Virus record (IMG/VR): IMGVR_UViG_3300037466_002980
Location: 170,811 to 234,810 of that record
Reading direction: 5' to 3' (one strand)
Source of the DNA: a virus
Lineage: Duplodnaviria; Heunggongvirae; Uroviricota; Caudoviricetes
Length of the DNA stretch: 64,000 nucleotides
A program made the translations under genes and the position numbers. The notes below the pieces were generated by a model. It ran no database searches, was not told the DNA's origin, and worked only from the letters and a program-made list of their open reading frames with translations. Shown piece by piece: positions 7,159-34,272 of the stretch. Numbering within the stretch: position 1 is the stretch's first letter; every line of letters starts with the position of its first letter.

Positions 7159-7233
7159 TGGTGCTCCCGAAAGGAATCGAACCTTACGTCTTCGCGTTAT
7201 CAGCACGCTGCTCTGCCATTGAGCTACAGGAGC
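7159..7233 (-). tRNA. tRNA-Ile(GAT)
   Basis: Loop CT GAT AA; CCA. Confidence 0.92.
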
Positions 7234-7248
7234 AAAATTAAAATAGGA

Positions 7249-7385
7249 CAGGATCACTTTTTACGTTGCTCTACCAAACTGAGCTATTGCTTCGTTAAAT
7301 GTAACAAAAATACACTTAACGAAGCAAGTGGGATTTGAACCCACGACCTACGGCTTGACATGCTAATGATTGCTGCAGGGATCCT
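7249..7385 (-). ncRNA. circularly permuted tRNA-like RNA closed by the CAGCA helix (Y/YrlA-like architecture)
   Basis: AGGATC...GATCCT-G helix; T arm GTGGG-TTCAAAT-CCCAC precedes a loop-closed 12-bp acceptor and D arm GCTC-AGTTTGGTA-GAGC. Confidence 0.8.
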
Positions 7386-7393
7386 TTAAAAAC

Positions 7394-7468
7394 TGGTCAG
7401 GGAGCACAGAATCGAACTGTGTCTACGAGGCTCCAAAGCTCGGCGGCTAACCATTACCATACACCCTG
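7394..7468 (-). tRNA. tRNA-Pro(TGG)
   Basis: C1-G72; loop TT TGG AG; CCA. Confidence 0.92.
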
Positions 7469-8539: not shown

Positions 8540-8568
8540 ATTGTAGCAAACGTTTTAATCTACGTCAA
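8540..8568 (-). promoter_or_regulatory. sigma70 promoter for the leader and tRNA array
   Basis: TTGACG-17 nt-TACAAT with extended -10 TG; late-type GATAAATA immediately downstream (8529-8536). Confidence 0.8.
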
Positions 8569-23689: not shown

Positions 23690-25414
23690 TTATTGTCCAA
23701 AATTATCTACTTCATTATCGGAAACTTCTGACCCATCTCCGCCGGTCATATCCATACCTTCGGTACCCTCTTCGCCTTCTGGAGGAAGCATTCCATCAAT
23801 GCCAGAACTTGTAATTCCAACATCTGATAAACCAGTTGGTGCAGATCCACCACCCATTGGTTCAGGTGCAAACGTTTTAGTGAGTCTGCTTCTCTCTTCC
23901 TTCCACATACGTTCATTTTCTGCAAGTTCTGCATCAGTCCAACCAAGATACCTTTTAAGAATAAATCTCTTAGAAACAAACGAAATATCAGTCAATGCAG
24001 TAAAGGCATTAATTTTTGCTGCATCTAATTCGAGTTGTCTGTATTCAGAGAATGATTGTGGTTCTGTAAACTGAATTTCAAATAAACTGTTATCAACTGT
24101 GACACCACGATGCTTTAAGAATAATTTAAATTCTGTATCGAAAGATTCAATAATTTGTTGTTGGTATCTTGAAACCACTTTAGCAAATCTAAATTCTTGA
24201 ATAAATGCTGTTCCAACCTTACCATCATTTATTGTGGCAGTTCCATCTTCTGGACCGGTTGGGAGATATGAACTTGGAACACCAAGCGCTCTCATCATTT
24301 TATTATTGAAATATCTTAAATCATCAATATCACCAAGATTTTCACCACCAGGTAATACTTCTACCTTAGATCCACGACCTTCACTTGTTACAGCAAAGAA
24401 GTAGTCTTCAAGAATAGACATTGGATTATATGTAGAATCGACAACATTTGCTCCGCCACCAGTTCTACTTGGAATTCTCTTTTGCTGAACTTCATAGCGA
24501 ACACGTTCAAGATACTGTTGTGATTTGTTTGGAGGCATTGTTCCGACGTCAATAAAGAAAACACGTCTTTCTGGTGCTCTGTGAACACGATAAATTAAGA
24601 TTGCATCTTCAAGTAATTCTTTCTGTTTATAAACTTTATAAATCTGTTCAAGAATACTTAAACCAAATGGCCATGCAGCATTCATACCATCAGTTAATGA
24701 AAGTTGAACAATATGTTCTGCATCTACTGCAACTGCACCACCATCTTGGTAGTTAGCTGTTCCTGCACCACCATAACCGCCCGATACATAATTCATGTTA
24801 CCTTGCATTGGCGGAGAAAATACAATACTATTCGCACCAAAAGTTTCATTTGAAAGTTTATTAAGCTGGTTAGTAGCAACCATGCTTTTGATATTTAAAT
24901 CAATATCCTTAATAAAATAACTTTCAATTTTCTTTCCATCACTTTCGTTAACAATAACCTTCTCTACTTTGGCAGGATCTACCCAATAGAGTTCAAATGT
25001 TTCTGGATCTCGAATAAAAAATTGATCTCCATATACTAGGGTTGATCTAAACATTCTCCATAGACGTCTATTTAATTTATTTAATCTAACCCATTGTCCT
25101 AAAGATTTTTCTAAAATTTGAATTTCAGCTGGCGTTGGTTCTTCATTATAATTAATAACCAATGGCATTTTAGTTGGTTCATTAACTTCAGTTCCAAAAT
25201 CAGCAATTGTATCTAGTGCAGCACTTATTTCATGATCAAAATTCATCTGATCATAAACTGAATATCTTTGTAATCTATCTGGTGGTCCAGAATAAACTTC
25301 TGGAAGCCAATTACTATATTTAGATATAGAAGCATATGCTGAAGTGCTATCTATTGATCTCTGTGATGCTGGTAAAACGGAATTTACCGGCTTAAAAAAC
25401 TTACGCCATGTCAT
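23690..25414 (-). CDS. gp20: portal protein (T4 gp20-like)
   Basis: EDAILIYRVHRAPERRVFFIDVG; EDYFF; LPGGENLG.IDD..YF. Confidence 0.97.
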   Translation of the reverse strand: MTWRKFFKPVNSVLPASQRSIDSTSAYASISKYSNWLPEVYSGPPDRLQRYSVYDQMNFDHEISAALDTIADFGTEVNEPTKMPLVINYNEEPTPAEIQILEKSLGQWVRLNKLNRRLWRMFRSTLVYGDQFFIRDPETFELYWVDPAKVEKVIVNESDGKKIESYFIKDIDLNIKSMVATNQLNKLSNETFGANSIVFSPPMQGNMNYVSGGYGGAGTANYQDGGAVAVDAEHIVQLSLTDGMNAAWPFGLSILEQIYKVYKQKELLEDAILIYRVHRAPERRVFFIDVGTMPPNKSQQYLERVRYEVQQKRIPSRTGGGANVVDSTYNPMSILEDYFFAVTSEGRGSKVEVLPGGENLGDIDDLRYFNNKMMRALGVPSSYLPTGPEDGTATINDGKVGTAFIQEFRFAKVVSRYQQQIIESFDTEFKLFLKHRGVTVDNSLFEIQFTEPQSFSEYRQLELDAAKINAFTALTDISFVSKRFILKRYLGWTDAELAENERMWKEERSRLTKTFAPEPMGGGSAPTGLSDVGITSSGIDGMLPPEGEEGTEGMDMTGGDGSEVSDNEVDNFGQ

Positions 25415-32509: not shown

Positions 32510-34272
32510 ACTGACGCATTTGATTCTAAGGTAGTAAATCCGCCTTCTTTAACAACCTTAAGAACATCAGTGACACGACCAACTAATTCGTCACGGTGCG
32601 AAATTAAGAAAATATTTCGTTTATTATCACGACTCATCTTCTTTAGTATTCTTAATGAAGATTCGACACCACTTGAATCTAAACCATTATCAATTAATTC
32701 ATCAATAAATAGCAAATTAATCTTATCATTCATACTTTCAAACACATCGCGGAAGGCCCATGATAATGAAAGTATCAATCTTGTACGTTCGCCTCTACTT
32801 AAATTATCAAAGTCAAATTCTTTACCATACATACTGATTTCAACTTCAAGGTCTGATTTGAATTTAACGCTGTGAGGTAAACCTATTTCGGAGATATAAT
32901 ACGATAATCTCTGATTTAATAAAGAAAGGTTTTGATCAATAATTTTCTTTCTGATAAAACTATCTTTACTTGTCAACAATTTAAGAAGAAATTCCTGATG
33001 ATCTCTTAGTTTTACTAATTCATTGAGTTTATCGAAATTAATTTCTTGAAGACCATCTTTCCTCAATGATTCGATTTGCTCAATATAAGGGTTCTGTGCC
33101 TTCAATTCATTCTCTAAATTGTTTCCTAACTTGTCCAAAATATTTTTATGCTGATATGCTTCGTCGATAGTTTCATAAAATGTTTTCGGAACTTCCGGAA
33201 TAAGTCCTTCAACAGATTGAAGTAATATCAACACTTCATCTCTTTTAAGAATCTTCGCATCTAATTTTTTTCTAAGATCCTTTTGTTGTTCTTCATATTC
33301 TTCGTGAACACGATGATGTGTTTCTTTATCCATTTCTTGATTACAGGTAGGACAAATTTTTTCATTAGATGTTTTTAGAACATTAACAAGTTTCTTAAGA
33401 CTTTTTTCGTTTGAATCAATATCGGACTGCAAAGATGATAATTCTTTAGATAAAGAACGATGTTCTGACCTAAGATCTTCAATTTCTTTTTTAGTCTTAT
33501 GATTTTGTATTTCCGAATCAATATCAACATTCAACAATTCAGTGATTTGTGTTTGCAAATCATCTATCTTATTAATTTTATTCGTCTCCCATCCCTGTGA
33601 TTTTCGTTCTAGAAGTACAATGTTTTGTTCTATTCTTCTATTTGCTTCGGTAGCTGCAGAAATACGAAACTCTTCTTCTTTAATCTCATCTTTGGTTGTC
33701 TTGTTGATATTACTTAACTTTTCAGCCTTTTCAGACAATTTTGTAATACCTAACAATTGTTCAATGATTGTTCTTTGATCACTAGATTTTAAAGCCAAGA
33801 AAGGTTCTACATAAGTATTCAAGGCTAAGATATGTTTAAACATATCATGGCTAAAACCAATAGTTCTAACAATTTCTTCTTGAGTATGTCGTCCTTCACC
33901 TTGTGATTCATCGTCACTAGCATCAGTTTCAACATCGCCTTTGGTGAATTTAAAGATAGCAGGCTTTCTGCCACGTTCTATCTTATATGTTACACCATCT
34001 AATTCAAATCCAAGTGTTACCAACATGTGCTTCATGTTGGATTTATTAATTAAATTATCTTTCTTAATGTTGGTTAATGCTGTACCAAACAATGCATAAC
34101 TGATTGCATTTACGATACTAGATTTTCCTACACCATTTTTATTATCATTTCCGCCTAGATCTAAATTTTCACCTAAAACTAAAATCAAATCATTATTATT
34201 AAAATTTATCGACTGTGTAACATTGCCGATACTCATGAAATTTTTAATTGTCAAACTTTGTAATAATAGCAT
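32506..34272 (-). CDS. gp46: recombination endonuclease ATPase subunit (T4 gp46/SbcC)
   Basis: NGVGKS Walker A, CPTC hook, LSRGE signature, LLFIDE Walker B. Confidence 0.95.
   Translation of the reverse strand: MLLLQSLTIKNFMSIGNVTQSINFNNNDLILVLGENLDLGGNDNKNGVGKSSIVNAISYALFGTALTNIKKDNLINKSNMKHMLVTLGFELDGVTYKIERGRKPAIFKFTKGDVETDASDDESQGEGRHTQEEIVRTIGFSHDMFKHILALNTYVEPFLALKSSDQRTIIEQLLGITKLSEKAEKLSNINKTTKDEIKEEEFRISAATEANRRIEQNIVLLERKSQGWETNKINKIDDLQTQITELLNVDIDSEIQNHKTKKEIEDLRSEHRSLSKELSSLQSDIDSNEKSLKKLVNVLKTSNEKICPTCNQEMDKETHHRVHEEYEEQQKDLRKKLDAKILKRDEVLILLQSVEGLIPEVPKTFYETIDEAYQHKNILDKLGNNLENELKAQNPYIEQIESLRKDGLQEINFDKLNELVKLRDHQEFLLKLLTSKDSFIRKKIIDQNLSLLNQRLSYYISEIGLPHSVKFKSDLEVEISMYGKEFDFDNLSRGERTRLILSLSWAFRDVFESMNDKINLLFIDELIDNGLDSSGVESSLRILKKMSRDNKRNIFLISHRDELVGRVTDVLKVVKEGGFTTLESNASV

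Follow-up and report, generated by a model that had tools for sequence, protein, structure and literature searches.

A stretch of 64,000 nucleotides (nt) from a tailed phage (IMG/VR record IMGVR_UViG_3300037466_002980, positions 170,811 to 234,810; hereafter the window) contains 22 tRNA genes, all on the minus strand, and between two of them a 137-nt element at positions 7249-7385 of the window, in which the 3' half of a tRNA precedes the 5' half, as in permuted tRNA genes. The question raised by this locus is whether the element is a tRNA, the remains of one or an RNA of another kind. An original prediction, made from the sequence, described it as a circularly permuted tRNA-like RNA built like the bacterial Y RNAs termed YrlA. 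Here we report that the element is a real and conserved RNA gene and that it is a member of a separate family of RNAs, which are linked to phage genes for DUF2828 proteins and share a terminal stem-and-loop module, the handle. We consider it probable that the element is a Y-RNA-like tRNA mimic that would be bound at its handle by a phage Ro60-like protein and would serve as an adaptor or bait for factors that recognise tRNAs.

A Complete Cloverleaf with Its Predicted Chain Ends in the Anticodon Stem

Between the genes for tRNA-Pro(UGG) and tRNA-Ile(GAU), all the segments listed in the original prediction are found on the minus strand at exactly 7249-7385, and the covariance model R1 described below returns identical coordinates (Table 1). 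From the 5' end, the first handle strand and its loop motif are followed by an anticodon-type hairpin, the variable loop, the T arm, an acceptor-like helix closed by a loop and the D arm, after which the chain returns to the anticodon stem and ends in the second handle strand. The ACG/CGU pairing stacks on the hairpin stem of 2 base pairs (bp) to give a normal 5-bp anticodon stem whose 5' strand is broken after position 29, and it is there that the chain exits the cloverleaf. At the handle junction, a 6-bp stem adjoins an internal loop of 16 nt/8 nt. The tRNA core tertiary nucleotides are all intact (U8, A14, G15-C48, G18 G19, and U54 U55 C56), and the discriminator position is G. The closing helix, for which 12 bp had been predicted, is in fact 17 bp long with a 7-nt loop, and all of its 17 pairs are standard, with one G-U and no mismatch. 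The element folds with a z-score of -6.35, better than every one of 200 shuffles.

The element is not called as a tRNA by ARAGORN. In searches with covariance models, which had been proposed as a check of the prediction, both models tried remain below threshold. The Rfam tRNA model (RF00005) gives 25.8 bits, under its gathering score of 29, and its match is an alternative reading only, in which a second copy of the acceptor 5' strand is paired and the D arm is skipped. The Rfam YrlA model (RF02553) gives 39.5 bits (E = 1e-7; gathering score 69) over model positions 23-87 of 114. These positions cover the permuted tRNA-like core of T arm, closed stem and D arm, and positions 1-22 and 88-114, the Ro60-binding ends, are unmatched. 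The absence of CCA that had been claimed is borne out, the acceptor 3' strand being followed by GUUAAG; CCA is encoded in 22 of the 22 real tRNAs of the window and in none of the six anticodon-bearing members of the family described below. The same array already contains a tRNA-Asp(GUC), the anticodon of which is the triplet displayed by the element. Maturation as a permuted tRNA by a splicing endonuclease was considered and ruled out, since the bulge-helix-bulge motif is absent and a Pfam search of the genome for the tRNA splicing endonuclease (PF01974) gave no match. If the reading proposed below is right, a cloverleaf that is complete, permuted and sealed would suggest selection for the shape of a tRNA without the function of one.

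Conservation and Covariation

With the protein of the DUF2828 gene of this genome as query, 80 viral loci were recovered, at 47-76% identity. RF02553 was run over 25 of these records and gave true homologues of the element, and R1 was built from 18 sequences. R1 scores the element 94.6 bits and finds dozens more matches, all of which lie on the strand of the DUF2828 gene. The covariation set consists of 38 R1 matches in other phages, 36 of them distinct. In the 38 relatives 92.2% of the cells are paired, compared with 62.8% in shuffles and ~40% in slid-partner controls, and doubly changed cells number 268 in the relatives versus 78 in the shuffles. The handle helix is 99.5% paired in the 36 distinct relatives, with compensatory changes at five of its six pairs. 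The T-arm helix is 97.8% paired in the relatives, the first seven acceptor pairs are 94.7% paired, with compensatory changes at all seven, and the D-arm helix is 93.1% paired. The closing helix, on whose conservation the original prediction had hinged, is conserved with compensatory changes. No helix is without such changes, and the phages compared have DUF2828 proteins with only ~50% identity. Both the fold and its conservation are established by these observations.

Searches by sequence were less informative: blastn of the locus against GenBank phages matched only the neighbouring tRNA-Ile, and a scan of IMG/VR for the exact pattern of a T loop with a D arm after it returned ordinary tandem tRNAs only. 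The control phages L004-L010 are not clean negatives, as they include one with a TROVE gene and CGAA-type modules, one with a DUF2828 gene, and a fragment that carries handle RNAs. Two complete control genomes without either protein give weak, partial matches of the tandem-tRNA type only.

An anticodon hairpin is present in six members from different phages, namely this element, L097, L121, L096, L098 and L099. Manual reading of these six sequences, from which the support for the upper anticodon stem comes, gives in each a composite stem made of 2+3 or 3+2 positions, five in total, with the nick following nucleotide 28 or 29 and with one mismatch in L121; the 7-nt loop has U33, A37 and A38 in all six, and the variable loop is 5 nt long. 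In their register against the D arm and the variable loop, the stem strands correspond to tRNA positions 27-31 and 39-43. Compensatory pairs occur in the upper stem (ACG/CGU here, GAG/CUC in L097, and CG/CG in L096, L098 and L099) as well as in the hairpin stem (GC/GC, AGA/UCU and AGC/GCU among the six). All six lie in or beside tRNA arrays or the DUF2828 gene, on the same strand; L121, from a complete genome of 161.6 kb (G014), ends 66 nt before the DUF2828 start codon. In each array examined there is a normal tRNA with the anticodon displayed by the mimic, i.e., tRNA-Asp here, tRNA-Phe by L097 and tRNA-Lys by L098 and L099. A long sealed acceptor arm is common to the element, L097 and L121. 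This copy is special in that its cloverleaf is complete, the chain ends lie in the anticodon stem, an anticodon loop is displayed and the acceptor is long and sealed. The sub-threshold YrlA core match, the conserved closing helix and the recurring anticodon hairpin support the view, first put forward with the original prediction, of a divergent YrlA-like phage class that retains an anticodon loop. A table of the anticodons displayed over all handle RNAs was too noisy to read.

A Family of RNAs with a CAGCAA Handle

The element belongs to a separate, DUF2828-linked family of handle RNAs. The family pattern is 5' AGR-N7-CNGCAW ... complementary stem-YCUG 3', and the element matches it at 7249-7385. 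In the 80 DUF2828 loci the pattern occurs in 98 copies on the strand of the gene versus 4 on the opposite strand, and block shuffles give 0-4. This pattern, with its strand and shuffle controls, replaced a first and looser handle search, the 281 matches of which were mostly spurious. The spacing and the CAGCAA motif are common to 88 distinct elements. Positions outside the pattern are also conserved, i.e., U at +5 and +9 and an A-rich 3' linker, and so are the flanks, with UAA before AG and a U-rich stretch after CUG. The handle family and its genomic linkage to the protein gene are thereby established. No description of it was found in Rfam or in the literature searched on DUF2828, on phage permuted tRNA and on tRNA-mimic decoys.

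While the handle is constant, its cargo varies: some members have none, and others carry an isolated anticodon-type hairpin, a T arm or a tRNA body, either permuted or not. The handle sequence recurs in dozens of RNAs with no tRNA origin. The minus strand of this genome carries seven handle RNAs, of which two lie in the DUF2828 leader. Of this pair, the one nearer the start codon consists of a 45-nt handle without tRNA-like cargo, and in the relatives G001 and G009 a full T/acceptor/D module takes its position. In this genome and in G001, G009 and G014, members precede the DUF2828 start codon by 13-66 nt, and the relatives L095, L100 and L121 are directly upstream of the DUF2828 gene. The 3' end of the leader module adjoins the ribosome-binding site of the DUF2828 gene, an arrangement that hints at autoregulation of that gene.

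Some permuted members are without the anticodon hairpin (L064 2121-2252, L069 2492-2628, and L106, which is G024 33064-33190). In L064a, L069a and L106, ACCA (discriminator plus CCA) stands right after the 7-nt acceptor 3' strand, inside the closing loop, and is kept although the remaining loop differs. The conservation of ACCA in an otherwise variable loop suggests that some permuted members are opened to expose a CCA end.

A DUF2828 Protein with the Predicted Fold of Ro60

The genome, a record of 362.8 kb with terminal repeats and 46 tRNA and transfer-messenger RNA (tmRNA) calls by ARAGORN, has its DUF2828 gene on the strand of the element. The window holds no Ro60 gene, as the original prediction had stated, and a Pfam search of the whole genome for TROVE (PF05731), which had been recommended with it, gave no match. 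The protein has the Pfam domains DUF2828 and DUF7788/vWA and falls in PHROG 850, "RNA-binding protein". A sequence search of the PDB with the DUF2828 protein returned no Ro60. With the AlphaFold model (pLDDT 80, pTM 0.74), the 12 best matches of a fold search of the PDB are all Ro60/TROVE structures, matched over the full length (E from 4e-8 to 1e-4), followed by isolated vWA domains only, and the best of them is the Ro60 of Thermus phage phiLo. The model thus has an established Ro60 fold, and the DUF2828/vWA protein is a putative Ro60-like ring protein.

A 392-kb phage with a true TROVE gene (G036) has CGAA-type modules upstream of that gene instead of CAGCAA modules; they are the TROVE counterpart of the CAGCAA system. 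The loop motif thus differs between the DUF2828 and the TROVE types of protein and the type of cargo is the same. Mainly because the motif changes with the protein type while the cargo is constant, the handle is read, from sequence comparison, as most likely the docking site of the DUF2828 Ro60-like protein.

Comparison with Known Systems

YrlA Y RNAs are associated with Ro60/Rsr (Chen et al., 2014) and have been found in 22 phages with TROVE genes (PMC4201824). The element shares with them the order of T arm, loop-closed acceptor-like stem and D arm, ends that pair into a stem and, next to it, a loop in which a short 5' motif is conserved, and a location on the same strand as the gene of a ring-plus-vWA protein, a gene that is directly adjacent in relatives. 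It nevertheless differs from a YrlA RNA in four respects by which one is recognised, i.e., score, motif, TROVE neighbour and distance to the gene. Its 39.5 bits compare with the gathering score of 69. The YrlA motif is GNCGAAN0-1G (PMC4201824), whereas the element reads AGGAUC-CCUG-CAGCAA-U, with no CGAA. A YrlA gene would be expected to lie within 4 kb of a TROVE gene on the same strand, whereas the genome of the element has no TROVE gene and its DUF2828 gene is 32.7 kb off. The candidate partner is accordingly a DUF2828-family protein that the Pfam TROVE model misses. In addition, the element keeps a full anticodon arm, which is absent from YrlA, and lies inside a tRNA array.

In Thermus phage phiLo, Ro60 binds Yrl RNAs that are encoded upstream of its gene (PMC12135203; PDB 9KOP, 9L5Y). 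A phage-encoded Ro60-fold ring with partner RNAs encoded upstream is common to both systems, and the phiLo structures are the best structural matches to the DUF2828 model. However, Yrl1 and Yrl2 are simple hairpins with a CGAA motif, and the paper describes no tRNA-like domain (PMC12135203); the phiLo protein can be recognised as a TROVE homologue and is ~17% identical to the DUF2828 model. TROVE proteins of jumbo phages have also been mentioned with a "tRNA-like partner" (PMC7824862). Phage Ro60 proteins and Y-like RNAs are thus already known, and the DUF2828-linked handle class is a variant of which we found no published description.

The handle also resembles the Class I RNAs of Dictyostelium, which have a short terminal stem, an 11-nt motif by the 5' stem strand and a conserved 3' CUG(U) (PMC7919456; Kjellin et al., 2021). 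Class I RNAs are 42-65 nt long, with a variable loop that is not tRNA-like, are reported from dictyostelids only and have as their known binding protein the RRM protein Rnp1A (PMC7919456). Features of this class that fit the handle are a 5' G-stem, CUUACAGCAA adjoining the strand of that stem, and CUG after the 3' stem. The Rfam Class I consensus (RF01414) carries CUUACAGCAA, the handle motif, plus the CUG end, and a handle-only phage RNA (L044 1535-1592) aligns with RF01414 end to end at 25.4 bits (gathering score 41.5). Similar handle-only RNAs of 54-65 nt, likewise with a match below threshold, lie just downstream of DUF2828 genes in L040, L046, L052, L053 and L056. By contrast, the element is 137 nt long, its stem, CAGCAA core and CUG end being present by eye, and RF01414 searched against positions 7200-7420 gave no match at E up to 10. 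If the reading proposed below is right, the motif match is a lead on a eukaryotic RNA class with unexplained function.

Permuted tRNA genes of Cyanidioschyzon merolae and some archaea give rise to ordinary tRNAs by way of a bulge-helix-bulge, the splicing endonuclease, circularisation and normal end processing. The element is like them in that the 3' half precedes the 5' half and the ends pair, but it has no bulge-helix-bulge, endonuclease gene or CCA, its acceptor is sealed and its handle is shared with non-tRNA RNAs. The two-piece tmRNA made from a permuted ssrA gene is a bacterial example of a permuted tRNA-like domain, in which the acceptor is opened by processing, and it encodes CCA and a tag reading frame. 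Unlike it, the element has neither CCA nor a tag reading frame.

Proposed Role and Alternative Explanations

We propose that the element is a non-coding RNA gene that would be co-transcribed with the phage tRNA array. Its RNA would fold into a complete cloverleaf with a circularly permuted chain and an acceptor sealed by a loop, and both predicted RNA ends would leave the 5' strand of the anticodon stem and pair into the handle, a short stem beside the CAGCAA internal loop. The handle would most likely dock on the putative DUF2828 plus vWA ring, as the stem-and-loop module of a Y RNA does on Ro60. The tRNA-shaped body would then act as an adaptor or bait, either bringing host or phage factors that recognise tRNAs to the ring or holding them off the real tRNAs. 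Such factors could be anticodon nucleases, modification enzymes, or enzymes of repair or processing. The RNA itself would be neither charged nor used in decoding. A strong promoter-like site, TTGACG-17-TACAAT with an extended -10 TG, stands at window positions 8540-8568 (-), where this part of the tRNA array begins, and its location ~1.15 kb upstream of the element is consistent with co-transcription.

Several observations weigh against this proposal. The covariation alignment was fitted to the structure of R1 and is biased toward it, although the slid-partner controls and the many pair types indicate that the covariation signal is real. In the minimum free energy (MFE) fold (-50.9 kcal/mol), the 5' linker and the variable loop are paired and the anticodon hairpin is missing, the cloverleaf being at -41.0; this other pairing of the 5' linker was ruled out as a conserved feature, as it is absent from the MFE folds of five homologues. 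In the family alignment fitted to R1, the 3-bp upper anticodon stem is only 51% paired, because the hairpin is missing from most family members. The displayed triplet is not conserved, so that no single target is implied. The close relatives with complete genomes, G002, G006 and G009, have no orthologue of this copy, which is therefore dispensable within the group. A distance of 32.7 kb separates the element and the DUF2828 gene, so that this copy is tied to the protein by way of the shared handle.

Among the other explanations, we regard it as quite unlikely that the element is a two-piece split tRNA, in which RNase P would cut within the closing hairpin, 5' of the acceptor 5' strand, and the 3' strand would be trimmed to the discriminator G and receive CCA. 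The product would be a tRNA-Asp-like molecule whose two strands stay joined through the acceptor and anticodon stems and the handle, and it would be charged and used in translation or in another aminoacyl-dependent reaction. There is a precedent in the YrlA of Mycobacterium smegmatis, with a 7-bp acceptor stem, which RNase P cuts in vitro and which is cleaved and CCA-tailed in vivo (PMC4201824). The element has a regular 7-bp acceptor segment, and the orthologue L097 has a 2x2 internal loop right after the seventh pair, with an A discriminator and a GAA triplet that fit Phe identity. The discriminator G, G10 and the triplet GUC of the element are identity elements of Escherichia coli tRNA-Asp. 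A permuted tmRNA gene is called by ARAGORN in the same genome, and ACCA follows the 7-nt acceptor 3' strand in the three permuted members noted above. Against these points stand the lack of CCA in the element and in all six anticodon-hairpin members, whereas every real tRNA of the window encodes it, and the helix that runs unbroken for 17 bp over the would-be cleavage site, with the discriminator G paired. In L098 a 9-bp acceptor is sealed by a UUCG tetraloop, and acceptor length in the family ranges from 5 to 17 bp. Moreover, positions 32 and 38 are A, compared with C32 and C38 in the real tRNA-Asp of the phage, the pair 2-71 is A-U, the bulky handle on the anticodon stem would probably clash with the decoding site, and a normal tRNA with the same anticodon is already present. 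A decoding role is thus unlikely, given the missing CCA, the unbroken helix over the would-be RNase P site, the UUCG closure of L098 and the range of acceptor lengths. The RNA may nonetheless be processed, in view of the M. smegmatis precedent, the internal loop of L097 and the ACCA of other permuted members.

It is unlikely, too, that the RNA acts alone as a free-standing decoy, competing for or inhibiting a host defence nuclease that targets tRNAs, with the handle as a processing and stability module that sets the ends within a polycistronic tRNA transcript and is no protein site. The spacers of 8 and 15 nt that place the element within the tRNA array, the conserved flanks (UAA before AG, U-rich after CUG) and the display of anticodon loops of several identities on handles would all fit such a decoy. 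Phage tRNAs have themselves been proposed to counter host nucleases that cut tRNAs. Processing by itself, however, leaves unexplained the clustering of 98 versus 4 copies on the DUF2828 strand right beside the gene, the CGAA-type loop motif in the TROVE phage and the retention of handle-only RNAs without tRNA-like cargo. That the element is debris, i.e., a tRNA pseudogene rearranged by tandem duplication and deletion in a recombining array, we consider highly improbable. tRNA arrays do recombine, two tandem copies can yield the order of 3' half before 5' half, close relatives with complete genomes lack this copy and one GenBank phage record labels a family member "tRNA-Pseudo"; but debris would hardly show compensatory changes in every helix among phages so diverged in their DUF2828 proteins, a 17-bp closing helix without mismatches, an intact set of core tertiary nucleotides and a handle sequence common to dozens of RNAs not derived from tRNA. 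For the Ro60-bound tRNA mimic that we prefer, a more specific role can be imagined, which we hold to be rather unlikely: ring and RNA may form an anticodon-display particle that shows an intact anticodon arm while the sealed acceptor bars it from translation, and that captures or neutralises enzymes reading or cutting anticodons, e.g., host anti-phage anticodon nucleases, or channels cut tRNAs to repair. The triplet would then be swapped between phages (GUC, GAA, UUG, GUU and UUU) to follow host defences.

Handle RNAs in Other Phages

DUF2828 homologues are present in 710 GenBank phage records, including those of Felix O1, of Listeria, Staphylococcus, Campylobacter and Vibrio phages, and of mycobacteriophages. 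In Salmonella phage Felix O1 (L144, AF320576), the DUF2828 gene is ORF86 (L144 6001-7416) and heads the tRNA array, in which four unannotated handle RNAs lie between tRNAs. All four are flanked alike, with CAGA before AGACC on one side and GGUCUG-G on the other, and one of them has permuted T/acceptor/D cargo and an R1 score of 63.5 bits. Over one handle RNA of Felix O1, a spurious opposite-strand open reading frame is annotated as ORF94. In Citrobacter phage Ci1 (L145, OR515478), a cultured T4-like phage of the Straboviridae, R1 has two matches (Table 1), the first of which is overlapped by the GenBank feature "tRNA-Pseudo-AAC".

If our proposal is correct, DUF2828, a family very common in phages and of unknown function, would have a defined class of RNAs as partners, a second and previously unrecognised branch would be added to the Ro60/Y-RNA system, and tRNA mimics would be encoded at many of the gaps and "pseudo-tRNAs" of phage tRNA arrays. 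With both the gene and four handle RNAs, Felix O1 makes the role of the tRNA-like domains of Y RNAs testable in a standard laboratory phage and host.

Table 1. Location of the element, its segments, its neighbours and related features. Coordinates are those of the window unless another record is named.
Feature	Location	Strand	Remarks
Handle 5' strand, AGGAUC	7380-7385	-	Pairs with 7250-7255
Handle loop motif, CCUG-CAGCAA-U	7369-7379	-	CAGCAA = 7375-7370; fixed spacing of 7 nt from 5' AGR
Anticodon-type hairpin, 2-bp GC/GC stem and 7-nt loop AUGUCAA	7353-7363	-	Triplet GUC at 7357-7359
CGU, upper anticodon stem, 3' strand (tRNA positions 41-43)	7350-7352	-	Partner is ACG at 7264-7266
Variable loop, AGGUC, 5 nt	7345-7349	-	5 nt in all six anticodon-hairpin homologues
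T arm, 5-bp stem and loop UUCAAAU	7328-7344	-	Rfam YrlA and tRNA alignments
Acceptor-like helix, 17 bp, with 7-nt closing loop at 7304-7310	7287-7327	-	First 7 bp = tRNA pairs 1-72 to 7-66
U8-A9 and D arm (4-bp stem, loop AGUUUGGUA with G18, G19)	7268-7286	-	Rfam alignment; D arm = 7284-7268
A26 and ACG, upper anticodon stem, 5' strand (tRNA positions 27-29)	7264-7267	-	Homologues in same register
A-rich 3' linker, UAAAAAGU, opposite CAGCAA motif	7256-7263	-	A-rich likewise in 88 elements
Handle 3' strand, GAUCCU, and terminal G	7249-7255	-	Forms conserved YCUG end
tRNA-Pro(UGG), upstream neighbour	7394-7468	-	8 nt before element; ARAGORN
tRNA-Ile(GAU), downstream neighbour	7159-7233	-	15 nt after element; ARAGORN
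Triplets displayed by anticodon-bearing members			This element GUC; L097 GAA; L121 UUG; L096 GUU; L098 and L099 UUU
DUF2828/vWA gene	Genome 143909-145345	-	Same strand as element, 32.7 kb away
Two leader handle modules	Genome 145358-145402, 145414-145508	-	13 nt and 69 nt upstream of DUF2828 ATG
CGAA-type modules of G036	L142, G036 ~97150-97760	-	Three in tandem, each starting GCGAAUGCUCGAAGGGA-like; at least one with T/closed-acceptor/D cargo
Handle RNAs of Felix O1, four	L144 7755-7822, 7922-7980, 8376-8444, 8463-8588		Together at ~23872-24705 of AF320576
R1 matches in Citrobacter phage Ci1	L145 7942-8054, 8142-8273		~0.5 kb downstream of DUF2828 gene

Other RNA-Related Genes of the Genome

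A full-length gene for the RNA ligase RtcB (425.7 bits) is found at genome 357384-358511 (-), not linked to the DUF2828 gene. A single operon of Salmonella comprises rsr, yrlBA and rtcBA. The permuted (two-piece) tmRNA gene called by ARAGORN, with the tag AANDAVFALAA, is located at genome 160426-160939 (-), and a tRNA with the anticodon CUA, which is labelled Pyl by the same program and would read amber codons, is located at genome 157384-157460 (-).

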